IMG/VR virus record: IMGVR_UViG_3300032177_003246 | DNA from: an uncultured virus (IMG/VR IMGVR_UViG_3300032177_003246) | Lineage: Duplodnaviria > Heunggongvirae > Uroviricota > Caudoviricetes | DNA: 20,000 bases | Reading direction: 5' to 3' (one strand) | Notes under the pieces: generated by a model | Databases searched by the model: none | Told to the model about the DNA's origin: nothing | What the model saw: the letters and a program-made list of their open reading frames with translations, nothing else | Part shown: positions 1,982-18,889 of the stretch, one piece after another | Position numbering within the stretch: the stretch's first letter is position 1 | Layout: each line of letters starts with the position of its first letter | Translations under genes and position numbers: made by a program

Positions 1982-2773
1982 TTACTTCGTTTCCGTCGAG
2001 CGAAGCTCTTCACGAATGATGCGGCGTAGGGCGCTCTCATCCGCAGCCCCTTCCGCCTTGTCCCGCAGCCCACGAATCGCGGAATAGAGTCCTGCGGCAC
2101 CCATGATCCCGAGCGCTGTCAGCGCACCGATCTTGAGGACACCCAGGATCGCCGTCGCCTCAGAGCCGTTCCCCTCATCGGCGTTCTGCCAGATCGTCTT
2201 GGGGAGTGATGTCGGCTCCGTGCTCTGAAGCGTGACGCCGTGCGCGCGGGCGAGCGCGCGCAGCTGCTTGAGCCGGCTCCACCACTGCTCGAACGTCTCC
2301 CAGCTCGTCGCCATGCGCGTCCACCACGACCTGTTCTCGCGCGCGACAAACTCTCCAAACTCGGCGAACGTCGGCGTGACATCTGCGGCGATCCAGTGCA
2401 CGACGCCGCTCACGTCGGCATCTGGGTCGCTCTTGTTCCGTGCGACCCACAGCGCGAGATCATTCGAGAGCGCCTTGAAACCCGTCGAGACCTGCATCAT
2501 CGCGCGCTCGCGATCCGCGACGGTATGAAACAGCTCTTGCCCGACGATCGTCGCCGGTTTCGCAGCTTCGTCCCGACCGCCGATGCCCTTCGTCGCGGCC
2601 CACATACGCTGCGCACCACGCGCGCCCTTGTAGACGTCGCCGATCGCAGGCAACGCAGGACGCAGCGCGGCGCCGACGGTTTCGTCGCGCACGTAGTCGA
2701 GCGTTTGCTCGCCAACCCATCCAGCCACGAAATGCTGGTCGTCTGGACCGTATGAGCCACGATCGCGCGTCAT
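1982..2773 (-). CDS. Membrane-anchored helical protein, local paralog family A
   Basis: ATG at 2773 overlaps the upstream TGA (ATGA). Starts MTRDRGSYG. Contains LFHTVADR, TSWETFEQWWSRLKQL and PTSLPKTIW, plus a C-terminal hydrophobic helix. Homologous to 8829-9510 and the C-terminal part of 9507-10934. Confidence 0.8.
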   Translation of the reverse strand: MTRDRGSYGPDDQHFVAGWVGEQTLDYVRDETVGAALRPALPAIGDVYKGARGAQRMWAATKGIGGRDEAAKPATIVGQELFHTVADRERAMMQVSTGFKALSNDLALWVARNKSDPDADVSGVVHWIAADVTPTFAEFGEFVARENRSWWTRMATSWETFEQWWSRLKQLRALARAHGVTLQSTEPTSLPKTIWQNADEGNGSEATAILGVLKIGALTALGIMGAAGLYSAIRGLRDKAEGAADESALRRIIREELRSTETK

Positions 2774-3534
2774 CGTCCCCACCCTACCCCGGATCGCCCG
2801 TAGCATCCGCGCGTGTTCCCCGACACGTGCGGCGCCAGATCCTTGCGTAGATTCCAGTACGCCGTTCCTACCCGATCAACGTAATAGTGACCGTTCTTGG
2901 TGGGATTGAGATCCACCGCCGTTCCCTTGTCAAAGAGTTCCCAGCGGGCTGGCGTGGGAGGCTTTCCAGGCTTGCGATCTGCGGGTGACTCTTTCCACAA
3001 AATCCAGTGCTTGATGCCAGCGGCCATCAAAGCATCCTTCGCGTCGTCCCACGTCCGTTGAATCGTCGCCCCCGACGTGTCGAGCCGCACGTCGTCGCGT
3101 CCTCCCGCCTTGACGCGCGCGATGACTTCGTCGACGGACATCGGGGTGCCTTTGCCGCCACGAACAACGTCCGTCACGAATGTCCCCAGCCGACGCTGGA
3201 ACTCGTCCTGCGTGAACTCGTCCGCCCCAAGTTCCCAAAGGTAGAAGCGCGCGTCGTCTCGCGTGCGCGCGCTTGGATCCAGCTGCTTCGAGCGCGGCGT
3301 GTTCGCGACAGGAGCCATCCAGAAAAACAGGGGCTGCGCGTCTTTCGGACGCGGCGGTAGCGCGGGGGCTGGCTGCGAAGGAGCGCTTCCACCGTCAGTT
3401 CGAGCGTCGCCCCCGCCTCCTCCGAGACCGAAGCCGCCGAAGCCGAAGTTTCGGATGAGCCAGTAGAGACCAAAACCGACGCCAACGCCGAGCGTGAGCT
3501 TGCCGAGCGTTTCTGCTGTGGAGTTCTCAGCCAT
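2770..3534 (-). CDS. Membrane-anchored hypothetical protein, possible ExbD/TolR-like periplasmic subdomain
   Basis: N-terminal TM (LTLGVGVGFGLYWLI), Gly/Pro linker, segment DDVRLDTSGATIQRTWDDAKDALMAAGIK, and C-terminal RGCYG tag. Confidence 0.7.
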   Translation of the reverse strand: MAENSTAETLGKLTLGVGVGFGLYWLIRNFGFGGFGLGGGGGDARTDGGSAPSQPAPALPPRPKDAQPLFFWMAPVANTPRSKQLDPSARTRDDARFYLWELGADEFTQDEFQRRLGTFVTDVVRGGKGTPMSVDEVIARVKAGGRDDVRLDTSGATIQRTWDDAKDALMAAGIKHWILWKESPADRKPGKPPTPARWELFDKGTAVDLNPTKNGHYYVDRVGTAYWNLRKDLAPHVSGNTRGCYGRSGVGWGR

Positions 3535-3540
3535 GCCGCC

Positions 3541-4497
3541 TCATCCGATCACCTGCTTCATGATCGGATCGATCTTGTCCCAGATGTCTTGGCACGTCAC
3601 GGTCTTCAAACCGAACGGATCAACCTCGGTACCCTTGCCGGTCGTCACGATCAGCTTCACCTGCGACGTTGACGGATCCCAGACCGCTCGAAGCCTGACG
3701 TTGTACTTACGCGTGTCGATGTTGTAGGGATTGCTGCCCGCGACGCCCATCCCTTCGGATCGCAGCTTCACCAGGAGCGCGTCTTTGACGCGCTCCGTGA
3801 CGCGCTTGTACGTGCGCACACCGCACTGCCCAACGCCGAGAGCTTTCAAGGCAGCGGCGATGCGCTTGTTGTTCTCGTCGACCTTCGCCGCGCTGTCGCT
3901 CACCGCTTGGCGCTCATCTTGGGTCTGTGCATTCTTGGCAGCTTCCGCCGTGTTCTGCGCGGCTTGCTGATTCGCGTCCGTGGCCTCAGCGACATGATCG
4001 GTTGCGACGTCCGCTGCTGCCTGCGCGCCATCCGGCGGCTGCGGTTGCTGCGGCTGCGGCTGCGGTTGCTGGGGCTGCGGCTGCGGCTGCGGTTGCGGTT
4101 GCGGTTGCTGGGGTTGCGGCTGCGGCTGCGGCTGCGGCTGCGGCTGCTGTGGCTGCGGCTGTGGCTGCGTCGGTCGCGACTGCGGCTGAGGTTGCGGTTG
4201 TGGTTGTGGTTGTGGTTGTGGCTGCTGTGTCGGGCGCGGCTGCGGTTGAGGCTGCACCGGCGGCCTCGGGCGTGGTGGCGCCTCCGGTGCTGTGGAAGCA
4301 GCTTGCTGCTGACGACGCGCTGCGGTCACTGTCGCGTTTTGCGCGTTGTTCAAATGAGCATCAGCCGCCTGGTGAGCCGCGTGAGCCGCGCGGATCGCCT
4401 GCGCGTAGGCGTCGACCCGTGAACGCGTCCGCGGCGAAAATTCGTACGCGGTGAGTGCCACGCCGATGCCGAGCGCGATCACGATCAGCGGGATCAC
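3541..4497 (-). CDS. Membrane-anchored protein with Pro-Gln stalk and C-terminal family-B-like domain
   Basis: N-terminal TM (IPLIVIALGIGVALTAY), Ala-rich helices flanking a long (PQ)n tract, and a C-terminal domain that begins after VGQ and has two Cys. Confidence 0.8.
   Translation of the reverse strand: MIPLIVIALGIGVALTAYEFSPRTRSRVDAYAQAIRAAHAAHQAADAHLNNAQNATVTAARRQQQAASTAPEAPPRPRPPVQPQPQPRPTQQPQPQPQPQPQPQPQSRPTQPQPQPQQPQPQPQPQPQPQQPQPQPQPQPQPQQPQPQPQQPQPPDGAQAAADVATDHVAEATDANQQAAQNTAEAAKNAQTQDERQAVSDSAAKVDENNKRIAAALKALGVGQCGVRTYKRVTERVKDALLVKLRSEGMGVAGSNPYNIDTRKYNVRLRAVWDPSTSQVKLIVTTGKGTEVDPFGLKTVTCQDIWDKIDPIMKQVIG
4036..4250. repeat. Imperfect 6-bp coding tandem repeat (GGCTGC/GGTTGC/GGTTGT)n encoding (Pro-Gln)n
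   Basis: Directly visible microsatellite-like tract inside 3541-4497. Confidence 0.95.
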
Positions 4498-4700
4498 GGG
4501 ACGTTCACGATCTCGTCGAGAAAGTCTCGCGCATCAATCTGCGCAAGCGCGTGACCCCCGGTCGAAAGCTTTTGCTGACCAGCCGATCGCAGGCCTTCAA
4601 CCGCAAACGCGGCCGAGCGAGCGGCGCACACTGCATCGCCGCTGCGATCGAACACGAGCGCGTAGGTCGCCGCCCAGACGAGACGCTCGCCGTCGCTCAT
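4494..4700 (-). CDS. Small hypothetical protein (68 aa)
   Basis: Start and stop both overlap neighbouring genes by 4 nt (ATGA at 4697-4700, GTGA at 4494-4497). Confidence 0.65.
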   Translation of the reverse strand: MSDGERLVWAATYALVFDRSGDAVCAARSAAFAVEGLRSAGQQKLSTGGHALAQIDARDFLDEIVNVP

Positions 4701-4903
4701 CGAGGCTTCCTAGGAACGAGGGCCGCACGATCGGCAACACCTTCACGCGTCATTCGCGCGTTGTAACGCGCGACGCAGGTCGTTAGGAGAAGCGTGCTCG
4801 GACACCGAGCCGTAAGCCTGAAGGCCTCCGGTCGAAAAGTCATGACGGTGCCGTCACGCTTCTCGATCATGACGGAATAGTCTTCGAGCACGTCGGTCGG
4901 CAC
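4697..4903 (-). CDS. Small hypothetical protein (68 aa, MPTDVLEDYSVMIEKRDG...)
   Basis: 3' part of track ORF 4697-5254. GTG at 4903 is preceded by a GAAGGGAG SD, and the stop overlaps the next ATG. Confidence 0.6.
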   Translation of the reverse strand: MPTDVLEDYSVMIEKRDGTVMTFRPEAFRLTARCPSTLLLTTCVARYNARMTREGVADRAALVPRKPR

Positions 4904-4914
4904 GTGGGCTCCCT

Positions 4915-5316
4915 TCACAGCTTCTCGGCGATGAGCCCCATGCCGCCCCACAGCGCAGAGCGCGTGAAGTTCACGCAGCCCTCCGACAGGCGGGTGAGTG
5001 CGTCGGTGCTGCCGAAGCTGCCAGCCTTGCCGCTGAGCACGCGGCGATCGATCTGGCAGCCCGCATACTCGACGAGCGTTCCCAAGATCCCGTACGCGAA
5101 GCCGCGCGCGAGGATCGGCCAGTTGTCCACGTACGGCGCGACGGCCGTAAGTACGACGCCGTTGACCGCGTAGACCGGCATGAACGGGATCTTCGCGCCT
5201 TGAAACACCGACGAGTAGCGGTCCTGTTCGCAGAGCGCGTTCTCCGCGACCCATCCGCCAACGCCGAACAGGGCCATCTTTTGGACGATGTCTCCGATAT
5301 TTACTTTCGATGCCAT
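4915..5316 (-). CDS. Small integral membrane protein resembling the DUF1113 / putative ABC-export permease pattern
   Basis: AGGAG SD. Pattern FGxxGWxxE...PFMPVY...hydrophobic...VEYxG...LWG, with several TM helices. Family call is from recalled motif only. Confidence 0.6.
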   Translation of the reverse strand: MASKVNIGDIVQKMALFGVGGWVAENALCEQDRYSSVFQGAKIPFMPVYAVNGVVLTAVAPYVDNWPILARGFAYGILGTLVEYAGCQIDRRVLSGKAGSFGSTDALTRLSEGCVNFTRSALWGGMGLIAEKL

Positions 5317-5348
5317 GGCTTCTCCTGTCTCAGCGTGAGATCGCTCTT

Positions 5349-5395
5349 AGTATATCTCGGCCACGCGCGCCTACTCGAACGCGGCACGCGCGTTC
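5349..5395 (-). promoter_or_regulatory. Intergenic stem-loop plus TATACT -10-like box upstream of the 4915-5316 gene
   Basis: Perfect 7-bp stem GAACGCG-N5-CGCGTTC at 5377-5395, and TATACT on the minus strand at 5349-5354. No good -35 element. Confidence 0.35.
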
Positions 5396-5407
5396 CTTTC
5401 AGTGCGT

Positions 5408-7294
5408 TCAACCAACCGTCACGATCGGAGCGTTGGGGATAACAGCCCGCGGCTTTGCATCACCGATCGCCTCGTCGTGAATGCGCGCGCTGCCGTCCGG
5501 ATCCTTGTCACAGGCCGCGGCGTAGATGAAGACCTCGCGATTGCGGGTCGCGTGCTGGAGCCATTCCATCGCGCGCGCGAGGCTGCCGAAGCCGCGGCCA
5601 TGGAGCGTGCCGTCCGCGTACTGGATGACACCCGCAGCCTTGCCCTGCTTCGTGCTCGCGTGCGTGCGTGCAACATCGCGCATGTCTTCGAGGGCAGCGC
5701 CGACGATCTCTTCCCATTGGCCGACGGTCGCGATGTCGACCCAGCCGCCAGGCGACGCGCCGACGATCTCCTGCCAGCCAGAGACGTTCGGTCCACGACC
5801 TGTCGCCTTCTCCCAGAGCTTGGCCCCCCACTCGCTCTTCATCGCGTTCGCGACGAGATCGGCCACGGCCTTGGCAGCTGGATCACCATTCTCGGCATCC
5901 GTCGCAACGGCCGCGATCTGTTGCTGCGCGTTGGGGTCGCCCTTGGCTGCCTTCTTCGCGGTGTCCTGGACGTGATGCGCCGCCGTCGAGTTCGCGACCG
6001 CCTTCGTGGCCTCTTTCAGCGCGAGTGCGGTCACCGGATCGGTCTTCGCCTGCGCCTGCGCCTGCTGGACGGCCTTCGTCGCCTTGCTGTCGCCCGCTGC
6101 CGACTGCACGAGGTCGTTGGCGAGCTTGCCAGCGATCGGTGCAGCGATCGGCCCGACGCCCGGGATAGCCATCGCCGCCGAGGCGGCGGCGATTCCAGCG
6201 GCGGCCCCGATCGGACCCTTGAGCTTCTTGAACGTCGCCGCGACGCCGCTGGCCACGCCCGTGACGGCGCCCTTCACGGCTCCGGCGATGTCGCCGAGGA
6301 TGCTGCCGCAGATCGTGTCGACGTGCTTGGCAAGCAATGCCCCGACGATCGCATCCTCGGCCATACCGACCGCCGTCTCGACGGTGCTGACGACCGTCTC
6401 CGGTGCTGGCTTGGGCGCGTGCATTCCATCGTGCCAGCTCGCGAGCTTCTGCATGACCATCGCGATCGCAGGCGCGAGGTTCATCGACGTCTCGTAGCAC
6501 TTGCCGTCGACGCAGATCTTGACGTGCAGGACCTGCTTGTCGTCGAGGCGCTTTTCGACCGTGACGCCACCAGTGGCGGGTGCGACGATCGGCGCCAGAT
6601 CTTTCGTGAGACCTGTGCGCTGCTCGGCACCGACACTCTCGCGCGTTACGCCTGTCTGCTGGCGAACCTCAGGGAGGACCTTGCGAGCCTCGACAAGGCC
6701 CAGGTGCGGCAACTCGCGACGCCGTAGGAAGCCCTGGTTTGGATACGGAGCGAACGGAGCGCTTTTTTCGAGAGCGCCAAGAAGCTCTCGGAAGGCGAAA
6801 ATCAGTGCAGGCGTGCCCAGCTCCTGTACAGGCCCGTGCGATGCCGAAGCCCCATGAAGGCGCGCGTTGATGCGCTCGGAGAGCGAAAGCAACTCCGACC
6901 GAACGGGCTCATAAACGTTGGTCTCCCAGACGAGCACCGGATACGCCTTCTTGTGACGCTGATAAACGTCGGAGCGACGTTCCGCAAACGCGTGCTGACG
7001 CTTCACCGACGCGACGCGCTCGTCATACGACGTCAGGGTCTTGTGCCGATCTGCTTCTGCCACCCAGGCGTTTTGGATCGACGCGTACTCAGGGCTGCCC
7101 GTGATCTGCGCCGTCGCCGCGCCCACGGCAGCCTGCACGTCTCGCCAGAAGCGCGAGAACTCGGCGTACGCCTGTTGAAAATCCTCCGCCTCTCCTCCAA
7201 CGACCACCCCGTAATAGGGGCGGTACCACGGCCGAAAAAAGCCGAAGCCGGGCGCAGAAAGGGCGGTGAGTTCAGCTCCAAGGGTATGTGTCAC
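5408..7294 (-). CDS. Multidomain protein (628 aa): helical N-domain, family-C core, VG-repeat linker, family-D domain
   Basis: GGAGGAG SD before the GTG. The core (LAPxxAPATGG...HVKICVDGKCY...AxxGDPxA...GAKLWExATGRGP) is shared with 7350-8420. The C-terminal domain is shared with the repeats of 11734-13455. Confidence 0.85.
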   Translation of the reverse strand: MTHTLGAELTALSAPGFGFFRPWYRPYYGVVVGGEAEDFQQAYAEFSRFWRDVQAAVGAATAQITGSPEYASIQNAWVAEADRHKTLTSYDERVASVKRQHAFAERRSDVYQRHKKAYPVLVWETNVYEPVRSELLSLSERINARLHGASASHGPVQELGTPALIFAFRELLGALEKSAPFAPYPNQGFLRRRELPHLGLVEARKVLPEVRQQTGVTRESVGAEQRTGLTKDLAPIVAPATGGVTVEKRLDDKQVLHVKICVDGKCYETSMNLAPAIAMVMQKLASWHDGMHAPKPAPETVVSTVETAVGMAEDAIVGALLAKHVDTICGSILGDIAGAVKGAVTGVASGVAATFKKLKGPIGAAAGIAAASAAMAIPGVGPIAAPIAGKLANDLVQSAAGDSKATKAVQQAQAQAKTDPVTALALKEATKAVANSTAAHHVQDTAKKAAKGDPNAQQQIAAVATDAENGDPAAKAVADLVANAMKSEWGAKLWEKATGRGPNVSGWQEIVGASPGGWVDIATVGQWEEIVGAALEDMRDVARTHASTKQGKAAGVIQYADGTLHGRGFGSLARAMEWLQHATRNREVFIYAAACDKDPDGSARIHDEAIGDAKPRAVIPNAPIVTVG

Positions 7295-7349
7295 GACGGC
7301 TCCTCCGTATGCCTGAGGGCAGCCCCAGACTTCATGCGATTGTCTTCGG

Positions 7350-8420
7350 TCACCACGACCACGAGCCGACTGTTCCGGGCCCGCGCCCGGTGGCGCGCTC
7401 CCAGAGCTTCGCGCCCGCTTCTGACGACATGGCGCTCGCGATCAGGTCAGCAACGGCCTTTGCGGCAGGATCGCCCCTCTCCGCACTCTGGGCGACGTCG
7501 ACGATCTTCTGCTTCGCTGCGGGGTCGCCGGCCTCGGCTTTTTGGGCGGTGTCCTTCACGTGATACGCAGCAATCGTCTGAGCGACCGCATCCTGAGCGC
7601 TCTTGAGCGCTTTCGCCGCGACCGGATCTGTCTGGGCCGCTTTCTCGGCCGCTACGACGTCCGGATGCTTCGTCTTCTTACCGAACTCGGCAGTCTGATC
7701 GATGATCGGGCCGACGAGCTTGGCAGCCGCGGCCCCCGCAAGGGGTCCGCCGTAGACGGTCGCGACCGCCGTGGCCGCTCCTGTGATCGGAACTTTGAGC
7801 TTCTTCACGAGACCTGAAGCGACTTTGTGGATGCCGAGAACATCCAACTTCAACGTGGTGTTCACGACCTTGGTCAGCCCGCCCTTGATGTCGTCGAGCC
7901 ACCCGCCGCTTGCCACATCGATGTGGCGCGCGATCAGCGCGCCAACGATGGCGTCCTTCGCGGCGCCGACCGCAGTCTGGACCTTGTCGACCACGATCAA
8001 CGGTGCGGGCTGCGGAAGATGCATGCCTTGATGCGCGCGCGCAATCTTCTGCATCACCATCGTGATCGCAGGCGCGAGGTCCATCGACGTGGCGTAGCAC
8101 TTCCCGTCGACGCAGATCTTGACGTGCATGACTTGCCGGTCGTCGAAACGCGTCTCGACGAGGGCGCCGCCTGTTGCTGGAGCGAGGACCGGAGCAAGCT
8201 CGGCGGTGAGCCCGGCGCGCGAGGGAAGCTCGCCTCCTACGATGTCTACCCAGCCACTGACGAAGGCGCCGTCAAACAGCTCCCGGGATTCGCCATCTGC
8301 CGCTGGTACCCAGCTCGGAATCTCGCGGTAAAACGGGTGTCCACCCCACTGCGCGCGCGGCAGAATGATACCCCCGAAGGGATCGGTCACGATGACACGC
8401 CAAGGATCCGGGCTGTTCAT
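7350..8420 (-). CDS. Paralog of the central region of 5408-7294 (family C)
   Basis: GAGGA SD. Clear protein similarity and near-identical DNA (6447-6559 vs 8048-8159). Confidence 0.85.
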   Translation of the reverse strand: MNSPDPWRVIVTDPFGGIILPRAQWGGHPFYREIPSWVPAADGESRELFDGAFVSGWVDIVGGELPSRAGLTAELAPVLAPATGGALVETRFDDRQVMHVKICVDGKCYATSMDLAPAITMVMQKIARAHQGMHLPQPAPLIVVDKVQTAVGAAKDAIVGALIARHIDVASGGWLDDIKGGLTKVVNTTLKLDVLGIHKVASGLVKKLKVPITGAATAVATVYGGPLAGAAAAKLVGPIIDQTAEFGKKTKHPDVVAAEKAAQTDPVAAKALKSAQDAVAQTIAAYHVKDTAQKAEAGDPAAKQKIVDVAQSAERGDPAAKAVADLIASAMSSEAGAKLWERATGRGPGTVGSWSW

Positions 8421-8472
8421 GGCGTCCTCATCATAGGCGCAGACAGCTGCGCGGTCTCTTTATCGTCACCCC

Positions 8473-8832
8473 TCACGGCCGTTTGGTCCCGTATTGACCG
8501 CGTGCGTTGAGGGCTTGCGCCACCTTGGGCTCATCCGGGCGACGCGCAGGGGGGATCGGCGGTCCCGGAGGCACCGGCAGCCGCGCGGTTGCCTGAAATT
8601 CCTCGGCCTGCGCCTGCCCACGTCGAACGAAGTACCGCGTGAGCACGAAGAGGCCTCCAATGAGGCCCGCGGCGCCAACAAGGTGCCCTGGACCGAAGGA
8701 TGTCGTCGAGAACACGTCCTTGGTGAAGAGCGGGTGCTTCGGCGGCGGCGGACGTGGCGGCGGCGGCGTCGTCAGCTTCGTCGTGACCGTCTTCTTGAAG
8801 TCCGTCCAGTCCATCTTCGGCGGCCAGCTCAT
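8473..8832 (-). CDS. Pro-rich single-TM protein (119 aa) with C-terminal RGQYG tag
   Basis: ATG at 8832 (MSWPPKMDW) has a GGAGG SD and an ATGA overlap with the upstream stop. TM is LVGAAGLIGGLFVLTRYF. Confidence 0.75.
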   Translation of the reverse strand: MSWPPKMDWTDFKKTVTTKLTTPPPPRPPPPKHPLFTKDVFSTTSFGPGHLVGAAGLIGGLFVLTRYFVRRGQAQAEEFQATARLPVPPGPPIPPARRPDEPKVAQALNARGQYGTKRP

Positions 8833-10934: not shown

Positions 10935-10947
10935 GCGCTGACCCTCT

Positions 10948-11334: not shown

Positions 11335-11335
11335 C

Positions 11336-11737
11336 TCAAAAGGGCTTGGCGACCGCGCCCGATTTGAGGACTCGGAACAAATCCCTGGCGGTCACGTCGA
11401 TGAGCGTGCTGGTGTCGACGTAGTAGATCATCTTGCGAAGATACGCGCGCAACTTGCCGAGGAAGTCGGGTCGATTGATCAGCGTGTTCGCCCGATCGTT
11501 GATGAACCCCTGCCGACGCAGATGCGCGATGACCTGCGCAGCGATCCGGTTGAAGGTTGCGTCGTCGCCGATCACCGCTTGGATCGTCGACAGTACCAGC
11601 CCACGCGCACCAGCCCAGTTCGGATCCTTCGTAGGATCGTAAGACGCTGCGTAAACCGTTTCACCAACACCCGTCCATGACCAAGCCGCCGCGACCGGAT
11701 AGTAGTGCCCGTCTTGACCAACGTAGTAGTCATTCAT
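11336..11737 (-). CDS. Hypothetical protein (133 aa)
   Basis: ATGA-coupled to the upstream gene. The N-terminus MNDYYVGQDGHYYP parallels MNAYADYVGADGHSYP of 11734-13455. Confidence 0.75.
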   Translation of the reverse strand: MNDYYVGQDGHYYPVAAAWSWTGVGETVYAASYDPTKDPNWAGARGLVLSTIQAVIGDDATFNRIAAQVIAHLRRQGFINDRANTLINRPDFLGKLRAYLRKMIYYVDTSTLIDVTARDLFRVLKSGAVAKPF

Positions 11738-13455
11738 TGCGCTGCTCCTTCACGCGCCATCGGCACGCTCGCATCACCGAAGTTCTCTGCCTGGACGTAC
11801 GCCTTGCCGTTCGAATCCTTGTCGAACGCTCCGGCATACGCGTAGTTCGCCTTGCCCAGGCTCGTTGCGCGGTTGAGTCCGTCGATCGCGTCATCGAGCG
11901 TGTTGAACGGTTGCGAGTGCGCCCTGCCGTCCACCGTGATCACAACGACCACGGCAGCACCCGGCTTCGCCGTTGCGATCTGCTGTGTGCGTGCGCGATA
12001 CGCTTCGATTTCGGCACGCGTCGCGCCGACGATCGGAGCGCGCCGTGGACGAGGTCCCGGTGCGGCCTTGCCGTAGCCACCGAACTTCTCGATGTACGGC
12101 GCCGGCCAGCTGTCGCCACGCTTGTCGAAGTACGCGGCGTACGTGTACGCGTTCTGATCTTGCGTAGCCGTGTTCAGCCAGTCATCCGCATCGTCTGGGC
12201 TGTCGAACGACAGCGCGTGCCACAGGTTGTCGCGCGTCGTGTGAATGATACCGATCGCATCGCCCGCACGCTTCTGCGCCATGAGGCGAGCGCGCGCGCG
12301 AAGAGCGTTCCGTGCTTCTTCGAGCTTCCGTGCTTCTTCGTGCCTGGCTTCTTCGGTTGTGACCCCCACCATGTACTCGTCGTACTGACCAACAGCCGTC
12401 GACGAACGGTCCGTGACGTACTGCGAGATCATGGCAAGGTGCGCGGGGTCGTAACTCTTGCTCCACGAAACCGGGCTTGGCCAGTGGCGGCTCGTCTTAT
12501 CGAACACCGCGCGCGCGATGATATCGGACTGTTGACCGAGTGCGCGAACGTAGTCCTTCGCTTCGTCAAGCGCGGTGAAACTCAGGATCTGCGGCGAGGG
12601 CGCGAACGTGACCTGGCGACCTCCGGACGGAGACGGAGACGGAGACGGAGCTGGCAGCCACCACACGTAGAAGTTCGCGGGCGGCATCGACGGGGTGTAT
12701 TCCGCGATGTCACGGATCGCGCTCTGGATCAGAGAGCGCGCCAGCGCGGAGGCTTGCCGCTTCGCGGCTTCATCGACCTGCGCGCCGACCCACGGAGCGA
12801 ACTCCACCCATGGTGCGTTCCCCACGATGTCCACCCATGGAGCGTTCCCCACGATGTCCACCCATGGCGCGTTCCCCACGATGTCCATCCACGGCTCAGC
12901 GCCAACCGGCGGTACGCAGCCGACGAAGTCGACCCACGGATCGTCACCGACCGAAGGAACGCCGCAGCCGACGAAGTCGACCCACGGATCATCACCGACC
13001 TTGGGCGGCGCGCCACCCGGCAGAAGAGGCCGCACGACGTCGCGCAGCGGCGTGACGTTGGGACGTGACGCGGGCGGCTCTTGGTACCGCCGTAGGAAGT
13101 AGCCCGCAGCGCCGCCAAGGGGCAGTCCGAGGAAGAAGGGCCACACGTTGCCGACCTGCTCGTTACCGACCATCGGCGTCCGATTGAAGTGCTCCATGCC
13201 GGGCACAGGCGCGTCCAGATTCGACAGCGCGAACACGGCAGCGTAGTCGTGCTCGGGCTGCTGCTGGATGTGGCTGCTGAACCAGCCCTGCGCGTCAGGC
13301 AGCGTTCCGAAGAGATAGACACTCTGCCGCAGCCCGCTGCGAATGTAGCCGTAGTACGGCGACGGATTCTGCGTGGCGGCGTTTCGCACAGCCCTCGCGG
13401 CAACTTCGGGGTAGCTGTGACCGTCGGCTCCGACGTAATCAGCGTATGCGTTCAT
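11734..13455 (-). CDS. Polyprotein-like protein with four family-D repeats, one TM segment and a W-x-D-[IF]-VG repeat array
   Basis: ATG at 13455 has a GAAGGAG SD. Four ~75-aa repeats share F-x-[ST]-[LP]-x-[DE]-A...[YR]A-x-x-F-(DK). TM is VWPFFLGLPLGGAAGYFL. Confidence 0.85.
   Translation of the reverse strand: MNAYADYVGADGHSYPEVAARAVRNAATQNPSPYYGYIRSGLRQSVYLFGTLPDAQGWFSSHIQQQPEHDYAAVFALSNLDAPVPGMEHFNRTPMVGNEQVGNVWPFFLGLPLGGAAGYFLRRYQEPPASRPNVTPLRDVVRPLLPGGAPPKVGDDPWVDFVGCGVPSVGDDPWVDFVGCVPPVGAEPWMDIVGNAPWVDIVGNAPWVDIVGNAPWVEFAPWVGAQVDEAAKRQASALARSLIQSAIRDIAEYTPSMPPANFYVWWLPAPSPSPSPSGGRQVTFAPSPQILSFTALDEAKDYVRALGQQSDIIARAVFDKTSRHWPSPVSWSKSYDPAHLAMISQYVTDRSSTAVGQYDEYMVGVTTEEARHEEARKLEEARNALRARARLMAQKRAGDAIGIIHTTRDNLWHALSFDSPDDADDWLNTATQDQNAYTYAAYFDKRGDSWPAPYIEKFGGYGKAAPGPRPRRAPIVGATRAEIEAYRARTQQIATAKPGAAVVVVITVDGRAHSQPFNTLDDAIDGLNRATSLGKANYAYAGAFDKDSNGKAYVQAENFGDASVPMAREGAAQ
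12803..13000. repeat. Coding tandem repeats: 3 x 27 bp (12803-12883) and 2 copies with 48-bp period (from 12915 and 12963)
   Basis: The unit TCCACCCATGGNGCGTTCCCCACGATG encodes NAPWVDIVG. The unit CGCAGCCGACGAAGTCGACCCACGGATCRTCACCGACC encodes VGDDPWVDFVGC. Confidence 0.9.
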
Positions 13456-13601
13456 GGCTTGTTCTCCTTCGGCGCCGGACACCTTCGGCGTTGGCTTACT
13501 GCGATTGCGAGCTTCGCGATCTCTGGGGCCTTCGCGAGGATCTCTTGCGCGGCTAGGTTACCCTGCGCCGCGTCCTCGGTAACTTTATTGTACGTGCTCA
13601 C
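13452..13601 (-). CDS. Small 49-aa protein not in the ORF track (MSTYNKVTEDAAQGNLAAQEILAKAPEIAKLAIAVSQRRRCPAPKENKP)
   Basis: Fills the gap exactly: the GTG overlaps the upstream TGA (GTGA) and its TGA overlaps the downstream ATG (ATGA). Confidence 0.6.
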   Translation of the reverse strand: MSTYNKVTEDAAQGNLAAQEILAKAPEIAKLAIAVSQRRRCPAPKENKP

Positions 13602-13981
13602 CAGCGCACCTTACCCAGCGGCGCTTGGGGCGTTGGTGCCGCTGATGGTTGCGCGGAAGCAAGGCCGCGCATGCCACCCAGTCGTGCGTCCATGGCGTCC
13701 GGCATGACTTTCGGTGGAGGCTGGAAAAGCACCGAGCGAAACACGTGAGGCACGCCATCCTTCCACCACTGCACGGTCCCGCACTTACCGCAGGTGTGCG
13801 AGCCAGGATCGCCCACGTTGAACGCGCCGAGATGCTGCCAACTGTTCCCACAAGATTCGCATGTATGTCTGTGGCAATCAAAAACATACAAACCAAGTGC
13901 CGTAATACCTACGGCTGCGCCAAGTGTGATCGCGAGCGTGCGTAGTGTATTAGGAGAGCTATGCGGTTTGCGATCATTCAT
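13598..13981 (-). CDS. Single-TM protein with zinc-ribbon (CESC...CGKC)
   Basis: TM LAITLGAAVGITALGLYVF, followed by HTCESCG...HTCGKCG. Confidence 0.75.
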   Translation of the reverse strand: MNDRKPHSSPNTLRTLAITLGAAVGITALGLYVFDCHRHTCESCGNSWQHLGAFNVGDPGSHTCGKCGTVQWWKDGVPHVFRSVLFQPPPKVMPDAMDARLGGMRGLASAQPSAAPTPQAPLGKVRW

Positions 13982-14738
13982 CTGAAGCCTTATCAGATGA
14001 TATTTGGTGTGTCGTCAGCAAATGGCTAAGGTCTGCGTGACGCAAGTAGTGCGCGGCGCGTTCTAGTAATTCAGGATCGTCGTTCACGCACCCCATAATT
14101 ATGTTGCACCGACTGCACACGAAACCGCGCAGACGTCCGGTCGCATGATCATGATCCAACGAGAGACGGCGGTTCTTGCGAGACTCAGGAAACTTGCAGA
14201 TTGTGCATAATCCGTCACAGGTCGCGAACAGTACGGCGAACTGGTCAACGGTGATTCCAAAACGCTGTTTCAAGTGAATGGCGTCGCGGACTTTTTCGTT
14301 GCTGCGCTTAATAGCCGCCTTGTACTTTTCTGGATTGTTTTTTCGCCAAACCTTGCTCTGTACGTCTGCGCATTTTTTACAAATGGATCGCCAATAGACT
14401 GTTCCCGTAGGGCCGGTGCTCTGACGATGAAAGGAAGAGGGGCGTCGGCTTTTTTTGCACTTAGTGCAAAGCTTAAATGGTCCTTGCACCGCTACTCGTT
14501 TGGCAGCGCGCGCGGCATAGAAACCTTGCAGTCTTTCTGCCGCCTGCGCTGCAAACGCTCCATCGAGTAATTGAGCTGCTCTAAGCTCACGGCCTGCCCT
14601 TCTAAATTCACCGCAAGCGTGTGCGGCTACAGCTCGTGTCACAAATCCGTCGAAAATTTCGAGCGAGTCCTCATGAAGGCTGTGCCGCATCGCTAAAGTT
14701 ACTTCCAAACGCTTGTGATATTTAGATGTTCGCGCCAT
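13974..14738 (-). CDS. Endonuclease VII-like (HNH-fold) nuclease, probable free-standing homing endonuclease; start uncertain (14849, 14738 or 14489)
   Basis: N-terminal CTKC...CKKC zinc finger, then LKQRFGITVDQF...CTIC...LSLDHDHATGRLRGFVCSRCNIIMG...ELLERAAHYL, matching the recombination endonuclease VII family pattern. Visibly more AT-rich than its flanks. Confidence 0.88.
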   Translation of the reverse strand: MARTSKYHKRLEVTLAMRHSLHEDSLEIFDGFVTRAVAAHACGEFRRAGRELRAAQLLDGAFAAQAAERLQGFYAARAAKRVAVQGPFKLCTKCKKSRRPSSFHRQSTGPTGTVYWRSICKKCADVQSKVWRKNNPEKYKAAIKRSNEKVRDAIHLKQRFGITVDQFAVLFATCDGLCTICKFPESRKNRRLSLDHDHATGRLRGFVCSRCNIIMGCVNDDPELLERAAHYLRHADLSHLLTTHQISSDKASDE

Positions 14739-14832
14739 CCAGCTGCAAAGATAGAGCGAGGGCCTGACAGTCGCGTCAGGATAGTCGTGCGTGTTCGCGC
14801 TGAATACGGCATTCCCGGTAATTTTCGCGTAG

Positions 14833-15177
14833 TTAGCGAGAGCCGTCATGCCGCCTCTTGTGCTTGCTCTTGTGCTTGCGCCCGTACTCACCGCGCTCGT
14901 TGCAGCGATCACGGTCGTCGTCGTCGTCGTGATCTCGCCGCTTCATGTGATGGTGTGCCGGCGTCCGCGCGAAGGGCTGCTGGGGCAATGACGGCGCTGC
15001 TTGCGTCATGCGTACCTGTCCTGGTGCGCCCTGTTCAGGCGCGCCTTCCGGTAGCGACGAAGGTCCCGCTGTTTTCGAACGAGGGCCGCTGACGATGAAA
15101 TATCCGACGAGCAGCGCGAGGCCGCCCACACTGCCGCCAACAAGCAGCTTCTTCTTGGTCTCGTCGGAGAGCGCCAC
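14833..15177 (-). CDS. Single-TM protein (114 aa) with His/Asp/Lys-rich tail and RGEYG tag
   Basis: 3' part of track ORF 14833-15870. GTG at 15177 lies just after the upstream stop. TM is LLVGGSVGGLALLVGYFIV. Confidence 0.7.
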   Translation of the reverse strand: MALSDETKKKLLVGGSVGGLALLVGYFIVSGPRSKTAGPSSLPEGAPEQGAPGQVRMTQAAPSLPQQPFARTPAHHHMKRRDHDDDDDRDRCNERGEYGRKHKSKHKRRHDGSR

Positions 15178-15179
15178 GA

Positions 15180-15662
15180 TCAGCCCACCTTCTTCAGCAT
15201 GAGGGCTGACGGAAACGTAATGGTGCCCGAGCCACCGCTGCCGCTGATCCGCTGTGTGAAGACCCACGGCCCGCGGATCTCGGTAACGACGTAACGGTTC
15301 TTGTCGTCGCGATCCGCCCGCTTGACGATGTCGCCAACACCGATGGACGAGCCGTGGAGGACGGCGGGCGGTACGGTGACCGCGGTGAATGCGCGCGCTG
15401 TCGTCGCGTGCGCGTGCGAGCGGCGGCGCGAAGACGTTTTCTTCGGCGATCGCTTCGTCGTTTTCTTCGACGCGTGCTGACGTGAAGACTTCTTCACGCC
15501 GAGTGCGCGACGGAAGCGGCGTGCCCCCGTCGGGTATGCCGCCCAGTCGGGCGAAAAGCCGCCGCGCGACAGCCAGCGTTGAAGGTTGGCAACCGCTTCG
15601 CGCGTGTCTGCATCGACGCGCGAGGCCTCGTCGATCATGCGCAATGTCGCGTTGGGATCCAT
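15180..15662 (-). CDS. Basic hypothetical protein with Lys/Arg/Ser-rich linker and possible SH3/KOW-like C-terminal domain
   Basis: KKSSRQHASKKTTKRSPKKTSSRRRSHAHAT linker, then IGVGDIVKR...RYVVTEI. The ATG directly follows the upstream TAG. Confidence 0.7.
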   Translation of the reverse strand: MDPNATLRMIDEASRVDADTREAVANLQRWLSRGGFSPDWAAYPTGARRFRRALGVKKSSRQHASKKTTKRSPKKTSSRRRSHAHATTARAFTAVTVPPAVLHGSSIGVGDIVKRADRDDKNRYVVTEIRGPWVFTQRISGSGGSGTITFPSALMLKKVG

Positions 15663-16322
15663 CTAGGCGCTCCTCCCCTGCCGCTTGGGACGTGCGTGCT
15701 CTGCGAGCCCGCGCAACGTCGTGCCCGCATCCTGCCGCAAGCTCGTCAAAAAGCTTTGCTGTGGCAGATCGAGTTTTTTGTAGAGCTGATCGATCAGGCG
15801 CGCCTGATGCCGGTTCCACAGCACCACACCCACGAGCGCGACCGCGCCGAGGACCTGCGCGATCGGCCACGAGGACTTCCGATCGATGTAGATCGTCGCG
15901 ACGCGATCGGGCTGTCCGACAGCGCTTTCAAGCGTGGCGCCCACAGCCGTAGCCCCCGAGCGCAGAAGCACGGACTCGATGTTGTCAGCGAGGATGCTCG
16001 CGAGCTGCTCGCGAACACGCGCCGTGTCGTCCACGCTGTGAGCGCGCGTGCTTTCGATCGTGACGACAAGCGAACCCGCGAAGTCGGGCAGCCACGAGGT
16101 GCGGACCCGGGCAGCGGTGTCAGCAAGTTCGAATTCCCACACGTTCGTCTTGATCGACTTGCCGCTGCCGGATCGCGCCAGCGCCGTGAGCAGCTCTTGC
16201 ACCGTGGCAGCTTTGACCCCACCGTACCGCTGCACCAACCGAATGCCGGGCACGAAGGTCGCGCCGACGTCGGCGTTCACGCCGATCGGACCACGCGTGC
16301 CGTAGTGCCCGCGAGCCGTCAT
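15663..16322 (-). CDS. Family B domain protein with C-terminal TM
   Basis: Starts MTARGHYG. The domain between DVGA and GATAVGA aligns with the N-domain of 9507-10934. TM is WPIAQVLGAVALVGVVLW. Confidence 0.8.
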   Translation of the reverse strand: MTARGHYGTRGPIGVNADVGATFVPGIRLVQRYGGVKAATVQELLTALARSGSGKSIKTNVWEFELADTAARVRTSWLPDFAGSLVVTIESTRAHSVDDTARVREQLASILADNIESVLLRSGATAVGATLESAVGQPDRVATIYIDRKSSWPIAQVLGAVALVGVVLWNRHQARLIDQLYKKLDLPQQSFLTSLRQDAGTTLRGLAEHARPKRQGRSA

Positions 16323-17663
16323 TCAGAAGACTCCGTTGGTGTTCATAAACGCCTGCGTCGTGTGCGGAAAGCGCTTGCGATCGTTTGGATGTTCGAGCCA
16401 GCCCGCAGCGCCATCGAGCCCTGCGTACTGGATGACTCCGAGCATTCCCGAAAGGGTGATCATCTGATTGTTGTCGATGCCCGGCAGCAAAATCGGACGT
16501 CCGAGATACTGCGCGAACAGCTCGCTCGCGACGCCGTGACGATGCGCGTCCGCCAGATCCGCGTCGAGCGCCTGGCGCTGCGCCTCGGACGAATTCTGGA
16601 TGACCGCTGGATTGATACCCAGCTCGACGAGGCGCTCTCGCCGCTGCCTGTACTGGCCGACGTGCTTCGACGAGGCGAATTGCGGAGACTCGCGTTCGAG
16701 ACGGATCACGAAGTCCCGCCACGCGCCGTCGCCAATACCTTGAATCGGCGAGCCGGGATCCATCGCGCGTGTGCGCGCCGCCGCCTGCGGAAGCCCCGCG
16801 GCTTCTTGCATGCGCGCAACCATCTCGGGCGGCAGGCCCGTCGCCTGCGCTGGAGACGACGCGGCAACCGGTGGCGGGACGCTGCCCACGGTAACCTTCG
16901 TCGGCAGCGCCCCGCCCGCTTTCGACACCAGATCCATGAACCGCGCAGGATCGGAGTCGAGTAGCGCGAGGATGTCGTTGTCCGTAACCGTCGTCAGCGG
17001 CCCCTGGGGTGTCGGAGACGCGGCTGCGGGAGACGCCGGGGGCGCGGGCGTAGATGGGGCCACTGGAGCAGCAACTGGTGTTTGCTGCGCCGGGCTCGGG
17101 GCATTCGGAGCACTCGGTCCTGGCGAGGGTGCTGCCTCGTGGGGACGAAGCACGGAGGCCGGTGGAGGTACGACCAAGCAGGCGCGTGCAGGATGCGCGG
17201 GATAGACCGTCGCATCAGCAGCCTCTCTCGGCGATCGGACGGGCGCGCAAGAGCCGCGCTCGTGGCGGACGGGTGCGCATGCGCCGCGGGTGTGCGCGCG
17301 CATGCGCTGCCGCTGCTCGACAACGGGAGCAACGAACGCCATCACGATGTCGGATGCAAGATCATCGCGGCCGATGGCTTGTGCTTCAGCGATCGCGCAG
17401 AGCACGACGGTCGGTGGCGGCGTACGCCCAATCCTGATGATCTCGCCGAGCACCGCGATCGGTCCCGGCACGCCTGGAGGAAGTGGCGACGTCCCTGGAG
17501 GAAGCGGCGACCCTCCTGAAGGAAGCGGTGCAGGTTCCAACCGGAACGGACCCGGCGCGCGCGGCGCAGCCAGTTGACGCGACGGCGGTGCCGCGTCACG
17601 CGACGAGTTGCGTGCAACAGCAACAGCGATCGCGCCGAACACAAGGATAGGCAAAAACCACAT
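16323..17663 (-). CDS. Membrane-anchored Pro-rich protein with C-terminal lysozyme-like / lytic transglycosylase-like domain
   Basis: N-terminal TM and long Pro/Ala linkers. The C-terminal RES...GQYRQ...LxxLGI...Q...YLGRPI...ITLSGMLGVIQYAG follows the ES...GxYQF...ITxSGLLAAAHLxG pattern of lysozyme-fold muramidases. CDS is clear; the function call is tentative. Confidence 0.65.
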   Translation of the reverse strand: MWFLPILVFGAIAVAVARNSSRDAAPPSRQLAAPRAPGPFRLEPAPLPSGGSPLPPGTSPLPPGVPGPIAVLGEIIRIGRTPPPTVVLCAIAEAQAIGRDDLASDIVMAFVAPVVEQRQRMRAHTRGACAPVRHERGSCAPVRSPREAADATVYPAHPARACLVVPPPASVLRPHEAAPSPGPSAPNAPSPAQQTPVAAPVAPSTPAPPASPAAASPTPQGPLTTVTDNDILALLDSDPARFMDLVSKAGGALPTKVTVGSVPPPVAASSPAQATGLPPEMVARMQEAAGLPQAAARTRAMDPGSPIQGIGDGAWRDFVIRLERESPQFASSKHVGQYRQRRERLVELGINPAVIQNSSEAQRQALDADLADAHRHGVASELFAQYLGRPILLPGIDNNQMITLSGMLGVIQYAGLDGAAGWLEHPNDRKRFPHTTQAFMNTNGVF

Positions 17664-17666
17664 AGA

Positions 17667-18332
17667 TCACCGACCTCCCCGCCATGAGGGAACCACATCA
17701 GCGATCTCACGATCGAGTTGTGCCGAGCGTGTCTTGGGCGTGTTCGGCATTGCCGAGACAGTGCTGTGCGAGCGTCCGGTGGCGCGCCCGTACTGCGCGC
17801 CGTACGTCTCGCGCAGCCACGAGTCCATCGCGTTGGCGTCCGCGATTTTGAGAACTTGCTGCCGCGCCACGGGCGCGCTCGTCGGCCAGAGCGCGAAGTA
17901 GGCGTTGTTGGGAACCGACCACTCGACGCGCAAGCTCTCGGGAGTCCGCCACGCGATCTTCTTCGCGTGATGCGTCGGCACCAAGCGCGGCTTGCTCAGC
18001 TCTTTCTGCTGTTTCTTCGGCAAGAGATGATCGTAGTTCCCCAGCTCGAACTCCGCCTCGAAGTCGCGTGTGAGATCTTCGGCGGTGATCTTGCGCGTCG
18101 ACGCGTCGAACATCTTGTGCCACGCCTGTCCCGGCGAACCGAATTCCTTGGCGTACTTCTTCGCACCGCTCTCCGCGAGATGTCCGAACGCCTTCACCGC
18201 GAGATCGTGCTTGTACTGACTCTTGATCTTTTTGGACGCAAGATTCTTCAAGATCGGCACGTGCTGTTGCCGATGCAAGGAAGCATCGTTGTCGATGTAG
18301 AGCTTCAGCTCGTGTGCTTCGGTGGTGCTCAT
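17667..18332 (-). CDS. Basic phage-type hypothetical protein with C-terminal AQLDREI tag
   Basis: TAGGA SD. The N-domain ELKLYIDND...PILKNL...GAKKYAKEF resembles uncharacterised phage proteins (recalled, unverified). Confidence 0.75.
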   Translation of the reverse strand: MSTTEAHELKLYIDNDASLHRQQHVPILKNLASKKIKSQYKHDLAVKAFGHLAESGAKKYAKEFGSPGQAWHKMFDASTRKITAEDLTRDFEAEFELGNYDHLLPKKQQKELSKPRLVPTHHAKKIAWRTPESLRVEWSVPNNAYFALWPTSAPVARQQVLKIADANAMDSWLRETYGAQYGRATGRSHSTVSAMPNTPKTRSAQLDREIADVVPSWRGGR

Positions 18333-18343
18333 AGGGTCCTAGA

Positions 18344-18889
18344 TCATATCTTGCTGGTGTAACTTCCGCCCATCCCGAGGCGCTTGGACGGATCTTCAAC
18401 GAGCGGATTTTGCTCGCCCATGCTCTGGTACTGCTGCCAGCCAGGCATGCCGACGCAGACGTGCACCATCTGGATCCCATCCTCGGGAACCATGTGCGCC
18501 GGGTGTCCCAACCGCACCATCATGTCCTTGGGAACGTTCCGCCACTTGATGAGCGGCTCCGCGGCCTGGCCAAGAACGCGAAGCTCCGCGACGCGCCAAG
18601 CCACGAGCCGGTCACAGTCACCATGGCCATCCTTGAGGACCTGTGGAATGTCCTTCCAGTTCTCCTCGCCGGGCGGATCTTCCTTGTAGCGAACACCCGA
18701 CGCGTAGAGCGGTGGAATCGGATAGCCAAGGCCCTTCTGGGCGCGGCGAAGCGAGCGGCGCAGGTGCCACTCGTTGACTTTGATGAGGCCTTCGAGCAAC
18801 GGGATGATCGGCGCGAAGTGCCGATCTTCGTCGCGATCGTCCTCGTCAAAGTTCTCGGGAAGCGTCAGGTGGACCTTCGGCGTCAGCAT
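18344..18889 (-). CDS. Transglutaminase-like cysteine protease-fold protein (Cys-His-Asp triad)
   Basis: GVRYKED...ENW...VLKDGHGDCDRLVAWRVAEL...MVHVCV...VEDPS gives a GDC nucleophile motif, an HV strand and a downstream D. ATG at 18889 overlaps the upstream TGA. Confidence 0.8.
   Translation of the reverse strand: MLTPKVHLTLPENFDEDDRDEDRHFAPIIPLLEGLIKVNEWHLRRSLRRAQKGLGYPIPPLYASGVRYKEDPPGEENWKDIPQVLKDGHGDCDRLVAWRVAELRVLGQAAEPLIKWRNVPKDMMVRLGHPAHMVPEDGIQMVHVCVGMPGWQQYQSMGEQNPLVEDPSKRLGMGGSYTSKI

Follow-up and report, generated by a model that had tools for sequence, protein, structure and literature searches.

What does an uncultured, virus-like element do with a short peptide that recurs at the boundaries of its proteins, and which enzyme, if any, acts on it? 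This question is raised by a 20,000-nucleotide stretch of DNA from IMG/VR record IMGVR_UViG_3300032177_003246 (the window, analysed at its full length), which is assigned to the Caudoviricetes. A minus-strand array of about 22 open reading frames (ORFs) with about 64% G+C spans positions 1982-20000. Many of its proteins carry Val-Gly (VG) peptides at leader ends and module junctions, and the same array encodes an enzyme with a transglutaminase-like fold. Our tentative answer is that this enzyme is a maturation protease that cuts at the recurring peptide. We favour this answer over each rival considered below, though we would put its chances somewhat short of even.

Is VG more frequent in these proteins than their composition predicts? 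The preliminary description of this DNA had proposed an array-wide VG signal, and the excess over shuffled sequences that such a signal implies is there: 22 ORFs (5,782 amino acids) contain 66 VG, compared with 38.1 expected from composition. Shuffling each protein separately yields a mean of 38.8 VG (standard deviation 5.6), and 0 of 2000 shuffles reach 66. When the eight W-x-[DE]-h-V-G copies (h is a hydrophobic residue) and the tandem-repeat stretch are removed, 54 VG remain against 35.9 expected, a count reached in 1 of 2000 shuffles. In 115 long ORFs of 16 Myxococcota loci, which serve as background, there are 291 VG where 293.6 are expected (ratio 0.99). The strings quoted in the preliminary description can all be found in the minus-strand genes to which it assigned them (TIVGQELFHTVADR, PLVGITLYHSVGDR, TYVGA, ATTVGG, ADVGA, ATAVGA, GVGQC, VVVGG and ESVGA), and so can WQEIVGA, VGQWEEIVGA, WVDIVGG, PVVGQ, YYVGQ, DYVGA, YMVGV and PIVGA in minus-strand ORFs. 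In 42 of 64 cases VG is followed by A, Q, D, G or N, with A the most common. The enrichment is real though inflated: paralogous positions and Gly-zipper membrane helices (for example, VALVGVVL and GAAVGITA) add to the count, and some of the cases listed in the preliminary description sit within folded or membrane segments.

The proteins and sites that carry the recurring peptides are the following.

9507-10934, minus strand: mosaic protein with 62 homologues; leader MNGRGQYG...YVG, module B, TTVGG...PLVG, module A (LYHSVGDR...), C-terminal membrane helix at residues 412-430.
10872-10877, 10557-10562 and 10512-10517, minus strand: junction VG codons of 9507-10934.
15663-16322, minus strand: module-B protein; leader MTARGHYG...DVG, module B, TAVGA, membrane helix at residues 150-168.
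8829-9510, minus strand: split module-A copy in two overlapping frames, 9118-9510 (MSARGHYG leader and LFHTVGDR) and 8829-9251 (C-terminal part with membrane helix).
1982-2806, minus strand: module-A protein; RGSYG near the N-terminus, TIVG ahead of ELFHTVADR, C-terminal membrane helix.
7350-8420, minus strand: protein of an N module and core module C with 84 homologues; MNSPDPW..., GWVDIVGG, module C, end ...TVGSWSW.
8235-8252, minus strand: W-V-D-I-V-G within 7350-8420, from the six-frame scan.
5408-7294, minus strand: multi-module protein; MTHTLGAELTALS module ending VVVGG, extra domain, ESVGA, core module C, linker with GWQEIVGA and GQWEEIVGA, domain D, end ...TVG.
5699-5776, minus strand: linker W-motifs before domain D of 5408-7294 (W-Q-E-I-V-G at 5759-5776, W-E-E-I-V-G at 5699-5716).
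11734-13455, minus strand: repeat and domain-D protein; leader MNAYADYVG, N-domain, eight W-x-D-h-V-G copies, two D domains preceded by YMVG and PIVG.
12820-12984, minus strand: five W-x-D-h-V-G copies, whose W codons begin at 12984, 12936, 12891, 12864 and 12837.
11336-11737, minus strand: 133-residue protein with a 7-residue leader, MNDYYVG, like the start of 11734-13455.
10948-11334, minus strand: 128-residue protein, ...APVVGQ at the N-terminus; contig L021 has a copy with 82% identity.
8473-8832, minus strand: small membrane protein with a C-terminal tag (ends ...NARGQYGTKRP); probable start MSWPPK.
2770-3534, minus strand: protein with a C-terminal tag (ends ...NTRGCYGRSGVGWGR).
14833-15150, minus strand: small membrane ORF with a tag near the C-terminus (ends ...NERGEYGRKHK...); start uncertain.

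What exactly is conserved at these boundaries? VG is a real peptide signal at leader ends and module junctions, but as the full definition of the motif it proved too narrow. The residue preceding the invariant or conserved Gly varies: one and the same junction reads FFGAE, FLGAD, FIGAE or YVGAE in different homologues, and distant loci have IMG, LVG or IIG. Hence the conserved unit is hydrophobic-hydrophobic-Gly (h-h-G) at module starts, often in the form W-x-[DE]-h-V-G. A six-frame scan of the window finds this longer form eight times in minus-strand coding frames and never in plus frames. Homologues of 7350-8420 contain W-x-x-x-V-G 64 times (in 45 of 84 proteins), often doubled, and many of the remaining homologues hold variants such as WYDVIG and WYDITVG. 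Among the 64 copies, the position after W is Y in 38, the second is D in 54 and the third is I or V in 56; A follows the Gly in 30.

A second tag is N-x-R-G-x-Y-G. There are seven minus-strand copies of it in the window and none on the plus strand. It lies within the first 14 residues in 54 of 61 homologues of 9507-10934. The VG that opens module B follows it at a distance of 8-25 residues (mostly 13-18), and module B starts with VG in 33 of 39 cases. Module A begins 10-21 residues after the tag in 22 cases, and its start reads [VI]G[LI]T[LI]YHSVGDR in 49 of 52.

The junction glycines stand out in family alignments. For 9507-10934 (alignment A3, 38 sequences, 37% mean column identity) the invariant positions are R4, G5, Y7, G21, G126 and G141, and the mean identity is 0.92 for the Gly in VG compared to 0.44 for the other 42 glycines. 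In the 5408-7294 family (alignment A2) the Gly before domain D is invariant in 40 sequences and the Gly that opens core module C is 90% conserved. In other domain-D subfamilies, among 141 representatives, the domain is preceded by hVGTGGPR or by EPWxSI[VI]G in tandem copies, with approximate anchors. Synonymous codon positions differ among tag copies, so selection acts on the tag peptide; for the same variation we rejected a nucleotide-level signal at gene junctions. Rhs/YD repeats, sortase-type and CTERM sorting signals and double-glycine leaders appear to fit neither in sequence nor in gene context, and we set them aside.

Could the VG excess arise without any motif, from composition and Gly-rich membrane helices in GC-rich genes? 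Several VG do lie within Gly-zipper membrane segments and paralogy does raise the counts. That VG is no more frequent than composition predicts is nevertheless contradicted by the composition-preserving shuffles and the background ratio, by the invariant junction glycines and by extended motifs that occur in coding frames only (8 + 7 minus-strand matches, 0 plus-strand matches). We consider this explanation hardly credible.

How are the proteins built that carry the tags? They are put together in mosaic fashion from shuffled modules (families A, B, core C, domain D and others). A single membrane helix anchors many of them, and the disordered linkers that join the modules bear both short tags. 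At least nine array ORFs have one predicted membrane helix each. Modules A and B are found alone or fused, and the internal junction of the fused form repeats the N-terminal leader; some A-only proteins have two leaders in tandem. The module-B protein 15663-16322 is 35% identical to 9507-10934 over residues 1-135 (blastp), and 7350-8420 is 55% identical to 5408-7294 over residues 61-352 in an alignment that begins at VG. Stand-alone homologues begin MTNIIGAELTALS, and fused homologues hold this stand-alone start after an N module (...LFDGAFVSGWVD..NMTN..., ...GWVD..NMTNxIGAELTALS). Three of the eight W-x-D-h-V-G copies in 11734-13455 form an exact 9-residue tandem repeat, and Tandem Repeats Finder reports a 27-nucleotide period with 3.3 copies at 12803-12891. 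The 141 representative homologues of this protein start at about query residue 10, which supports the ATG at 13455.

The frames of the split module-A copy at 8829-9510 match 9507-10934 and 1982-2806 in blastp. The same split sequence occurs in an independent contig (L022); a frameshift, a sequencing error or decay into a pseudogene could account for it.

A structure model of residues 221-628 of 5408-7294 (predicted local distance difference test, pLDDT, 75) places the tags between folded units. Core module C appears there as a beta-meander that leads into long helices, and domain D as a confident alpha-beta-beta-alpha-beta-beta unit (pLDDT 95-98). The W-motifs sit between the two at residues 502-533, where pLDDT is about 30, and five of the eight VG in the modelled part fall in four low-confidence segments. 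When this model was used for a fold search, neither module C nor domain D had a convincing match (Foldseek E≥0.96; VIA Z≤6.3, to helical parts). As to the protein ends, 38 of 83 homologues of 7350-8420 terminate with G(x)W and no more than three further residues, and 9 of 83 with ..SG or ..VG; 2 of the 22 window ORFs have a C-terminal VG.

Which enzyme is encoded next to these proteins?

18344-18889, minus strand: transglutaminase-fold Cys-His-Asp enzyme, 181 residues from ATG; a GTG ORF extends to 18898.
18614-18616 (Cys95), 18461-18463 (His146) and 18392-18394 (Asp169), minus strand: catalytic codons, numbered in the GTG ORF (alignment A1).

A GDC...H...D pattern had been read from this protein, together with a transglutaminase-like fold, and both readings hold. 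D94, C95, H146, E168 and D169 are invariant in alignment A1 (26 sequences). There are 169 homologues at E≤0.001, one of which (P0065) has a precomputed PF01841 match. Against Transglut_core (PF01841), 19 of 26 family members match at E≤1, the best at 7.8e-8; the window's own enzyme scores E=0.13 (13 bits, curated cut-off 23). A PDB sequence search with the enzyme profile found no match. A structure model of the enzyme (pLDDT 84) resembles the putative protease 3kd4 (Z 6.3, root-mean-square deviation 5.2, 126 residues aligned), the phage pseudomurein isopeptidases PeiP (8z4f; Z 6.3, deviation 3.9, 111 residues) and PeiW (8jx4; Z 5.5), and LapG (4fgo; Z 4.8, deviation 4.4, 109 residues), with TglA and TgpA also at Z 4.8. 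Further fold neighbours are PNGase, Rad4, TG2, TG3, factor XIII and the putative protease 3isr, and the best Foldseek matches are TgpA, 3kd4 and TG2. Nearly every top match has the transglutaminase/papain-like fold. Because the Z scores are modest, the assignment of this fold rests on the consistency of the list and on the Pfam matches of the family. The fold covers proteases, isopeptidases and cross-linking enzymes, any of which this protein may be. Adenain, I7 and pS273R are not its relatives: their families have no Pfam match among 24 window ORFs, and the fold matches are transglutaminase-like instead. A complex prediction for the enzyme with the 50-residue leader of 9507-10934 scored 0.01, compared to a mark of 0.32, which speaks neither for nor against binding.

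Some relatives of the enzyme have two or three transglutaminase-like domains in tandem (L004:1115-2539; P0060, P0062, P0065). In relatives of 313-322 residues, an N-terminal domain copy without the catalytic Cys, a pseudo-enzyme, is joined to the enzyme.

As a genuine transglutaminase or transpeptidase, the enzyme would cross-link one module to another via residues of the tags and thereby stabilise a particle. The fold is indeed that of transglutaminases (TG2, TG3, factor XIII, TglA), whose typical substrates are flexible linkers, and Gln is found before W in 24 of the 64 W-motif copies and directly after VG in 8 cases, 2.6 times the expectation. But this Gln is not conserved, since G and Q alternate before W and A is commonest after VG, and a conserved Lys partner is not seen. 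Such a role strikes us as improbable.

Do motif and enzyme stay together elsewhere? The preliminary description had asked this of homologous loci, and they do: in 15 Myxococcota loci an h-h-G-rich ORF lies directly upstream of the enzyme gene. The first 110 residues of these upstream ORFs contain 48 h-h-G, compared with 9.3 expected from 80,039 residues of other ORFs, and at least two h-h-G occur in 13 of the 15. The upstream ORFs begin with acidic repeats of h-h-G, for example HTDIMGDDILGDE..., KWEEIMGDDDD...AEIVGEED, YDEIIGGLDE and MIVGAEP...LMVGGEP. For one of the upstream proteins, Atlas language-model look-alikes fall into clusters labelled about 80% viral, a lead only. Distant enzyme homologues (29-50% identity) lie in 20 loci, mostly in Myxococcota/Polyangia and including the cultured Polyangium sp. 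15x6. An alignment-based genome scan found them; a single-protein scan gave none. Of 301 Myxococcota genomes sampled, 24 contain a match to the enzyme profile, often in several copies. Around the distant enzyme copies are genes for an integrase, a Cro/C1-type helix-turn-helix protein, ParB, Peptidase_M78, SLT, Amidase_2, glucosaminidase and an ATPase; tailed-phage capsid, portal and terminase families were not found there. In Polyangium sp. 15x6 the island is about 22 kb long, and host-like genes resume near L023:4900.

Two short contigs with the enzyme, L004 and L019, are binned with a Casimicrobiaceae bacterium and a Methanomicrobiales archaeon, which is probably a mis-binning of a mobile or viral contig. 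Beside an integrated relative on a 2.85-Mb Deltaproteobacteria contig (L020) lie genes for a giant protein with RHS/SpvB/TcdB-mid domains (L020:1048-8241, minus strand) and for a protein of the thiol-activated-cytolysin family (16320-18131, minus strand); we mention them as context only.

Because invariant linker h-h-G adjoins a Cys-His-Asp enzyme across divergent loci, the best explanation is that the enzyme acts on the motif. We infer this action, and also that it is cleavage. The h-h-G would then be the recognition site of the co-encoded transglutaminase-fold enzyme, which would trim leaders, separate fused modules and, in distant relatives, chop an acidic repeat propeptide. We favour cleavage because leaders and acidic repeat regions resemble disposable propeptides, because fused and split forms look interchangeable and because, by analogy, precedents may be seen in LapG and in the prohead proteases of giant phages.

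Alternatively, the tags are docking or assembly labels that are bound and not cut. They would recruit modules to a shell, a membrane or a hub, and the enzyme would have another role or only bind. Positions at N-termini, internal junctions and C-termini are typical of docking peptides, the model puts the motif in a disordered linker, tandem copies would increase avidity, and the membrane helices would suit such a role. No receptor protein has been identified, though, and docking leaves unexplained why the enzyme persistently adjoins h-h-G-repeat proteins in divergent loci. Long acidic runs of h-h-G also resemble a disposable propeptide more than an address. We regard docking as a less probable account than cleavage, and still as the strongest of the rivals.

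A further possibility is that motif and enzyme are unrelated. The h-h-G would be a structural linker or cap signature spread by duplication and shuffling, and the enzyme a cell-wall peptidase for lysis or entry. PeiP and PeiW are among the best fold matches and lysis genes lie near the enzyme in relatives, which makes a lytic role a live rival. VG stands immediately ahead of helices in modules B and D, and the enzyme family itself is depleted in VG (ratio 0.67). However, the motif is kept across unrelated module families with differing flanks, and it recurs in the immediate neighbour of the enzyme where the enzyme is only 30-40% identical. It also forms tandem copies of 7-9 residues in disordered regions, for which domain capping fails as an explanation. 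On balance we find this reading unlikely, a little more so than docking.

Several observations weigh against cleavage by this enzyme, which we continue to favour. The bias of VG towards boundaries, another part of the original proposal, is weak at the ends of paralogue alignments: in a crude permutation, VG falls at 6 of 20 ends where 3.5 are expected (P=0.11), a non-significant result, and GA does as well (7 of 20). The bias is better shown by the invariant junction glycines of the homologue alignments, where an invariant Gly before a helix could itself be structural capping. Many homologues of 7350-8420 stop inside the W-motif (...SGW, ...GWW) and not after the Gly. In three small membrane ORFs N-x-R-G-x-Y-G stands at the C-terminus, where a cut frees almost nothing; for these copies a docking label fits better than a cut site. 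The fold matches reach Z scores of at most 6.3 and their top list includes cell-wall isopeptidases. In relatives, the enzyme gene has SLT, amidase, glucosaminidase and endolysin-type genes as neighbours no more than a few kb away. A module A/B profile matches 0 of 301 Myxococcota genomes, in a scan with no positive control genome, so the enzyme (24 of 301) does not depend on A/B substrates. Finally, the 15 loci amount to roughly eight or nine independent lineages.

Does a known system work in this manner? According to one published account (PMC10990149), LapG is a cysteine protease of the transglutaminase-like type, and its cleavage site is a di-alanine motif that directly follows an N-terminal module. 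It shares with our enzyme the transglutaminase-like fold with Cys-His-Asp, and cutting at a short motif is LapG's own trait. LapG cleavage depends on calcium. LapG cuts at A-A, whereas the peptide that recurs here is h-h-G with A, Q or G after it. LapG has one giant adhesin substrate in a context of adhesion control; here there are many candidate substrates in a virus-like context. LapD, LapA and type 1 secretion families are absent from the 24 window ORFs, and neither a LapD-type receptor nor a giant type 1 secretion adhesin with a retention module was found there or in 67 ORFs of four related loci.

The prohead protease of phage SPN3US (gp245) is reported to cleave eight head proteins (PMC7411985, PMC10052503). 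The likeness to T4 and phiKZ-like prohead proteases would lie in a single protease that trims the propeptides of many particle proteins, paralogous internal ones included, at one consensus. No tailed-phage capsid, portal or terminase family was found in the window, which sets it apart from those systems. Prohead proteases also differ in fold, are serine enzymes and cleave behind a Glu residue.

Adenain, poxvirus I7 and African swine fever virus (ASFV) pS273R are cysteine proteases that mature virion precursors and polyproteins at Gly-containing motifs. They belong to another protease clan (CE) and the hosts of their viruses are eukaryotes. PeiW and PeiP, pseudomurein endoisopeptidases of archaeal phages, are in turn virus-encoded, transglutaminase-like, Cys-His-Asp and best or near-best in fold. 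They differ in cutting isopeptide bonds of the cell wall instead of virion proteins and in lacking the N-terminal helical part seen here, and are 9-13% identical. For docking, the comparison is with encapsulin cargo-loading peptides and the T4 capsid-targeting sequence, short tags at disordered ends that address unrelated proteins to one shell; the T4 tag is subsequently removed by the prohead protease. Their sequences differ from h-h-G and N-x-R-G-x-Y-G, and no encapsulin or HK97-type shell has a Pfam match among the 24 window ORFs.

Two genes between the enzyme and the module-B protein belong to the same neighbourhood.

16323-17663, minus strand: membrane-anchored protein, downstream neighbour of the enzyme; N-terminal helix at residues 1-19, Pro-rich linker, conserved C-terminal domain.
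17667-18332, minus strand: 221-residue ORF between the enzyme gene and the membrane-protein neighbour.

The C-terminal domain of 16323-17663 recurs in a membrane-anchored protein after the enzyme gene in three loci (L001, L004 and L005); no Pfam or PDB match was found for it. By tblastn, 17667-18332 has relatives in four Myxococcota loci (L011, L012, L013 and L015), where the distance to the enzyme gene is about 7 kb; for this ORF we found no family match and no usable Atlas match.

What is the element to which the array belongs? Most likely, the window contains a portion of the genes for structural proteins of an uncultured virus-like element, related to integrase-bearing islands of Myxococcota genomes; that the element is a virus we infer. 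A Pfam scan of the 24 window ORFs found a single family above cut-off, Endonuclease VII at 13974-14912, and a PHROGs scan gave weak matches only; capsid, portal, terminase and packaging families were found in neither. Megablast of the array and tblastn with two of its proteins returned nothing from phage records, and a search of IMG/VR found no relative of the enzyme. A metagenome scan found two loci only, one of which (L022) is the window's own sequence in an identical contig. The close homologues (up to 94% identity) are all metagenome proteins, some of them on 300-500 kb contigs, the longest of 501,972 bases; IMG/VR and the phage records contain none of them.

The remaining genes of the window touch neither tags nor enzyme directly. 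An infC gene for translation initiation factor 3 (IF-3) lies at 1-378 (minus strand); at L022:9272-10015 it is complete and encodes 247 residues with a long acidic C-terminal tail. Downstream of the L022 copy are a small Cys-rich ORF and then a membrane ORF, with no rpmI-rplT. The G+C content at third codon positions (GC3) is 0.86 in infC compared to 0.71-0.80 across the array, and the gene may belong to the element as a translation factor of its own or mark where host DNA begins. The Endonuclease VII/HNH-type gene at 13974-14912 (minus strand; Pfam E=1.3e-20) has a GC3 of 0.53 and lies in surroundings of 54% G+C; the array seems to have acquired it by insertion, as a mobile homing endonuclease. 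The protein encoded at 3541-4497 (minus strand) is membrane-anchored; repeats of the (P-Q)n type occupy about 90 of its residues in one run (DNA repeats at 4035-4255), and it has a weak PHROG match to a tape measure protein (E=4.9e-5). The ORF upstream of the enzyme, 18889-19371 (minus strand), contains runs of the dipeptides PQ and DR; its C-terminal part is extremely rich in aromatic residues (YDYWPRWYPYYDPYWYWYWQYLFWYY), and it ends ...RYGWL. The small protein at 13598-13981 (minus strand) has an N-terminal membrane helix and a zinc-ribbon-like four-Cys pattern, C-x2-C ... C-x2-C. The sole sizeable plus-strand gene, 407-1456, encodes a nine-Gly run (a repeat in the DNA at 930-957) and a C-terminal half that resembles a coiled coil; it matched no family.

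In its widest form, the reading that we favour describes a maturation protease of an undescribed Myxococcota virus lineage, which cuts membrane-anchored modular precursors at h-h-G in elements that range from islands of about 22 kb to elements on 300-500 kb contigs with their own IF-3. This would be a bacterial counterpart of the processing in adenoviruses and ASFV, with a different protease fold. So broad a claim is doubtful, somewhat more so than cutting by the enzyme as such.

The kind of system is already known: particle proteins are processed or addressed at a consensus site. What is different here is the undescribed element and the unusual fold of the enzyme. A literature search, limited to one library of papers, found no description of the motif, nor of such an enzyme in virion maturation. 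Our analysis contributes the second tag, the pattern of fusion and fission, and the observation that motif and enzyme adjoin in distant integrated elements. Across hundreds of metagenome proteins that lack annotation (three families, with 84, 62 and 141 homologues), the tags show where modules meet and which proteins probably belong to the particle. The cultured Polyangium isolate carries a small integrated relative, which makes the idea testable at the bench. If the enzyme cuts the tags, it would be the first transglutaminase-fold maturation protease of a virus, and a bacterial virus-like element of nearly all unknown proteins would use polyprotein-like processing. If the tags are docking labels, they would still be a new addressing code.

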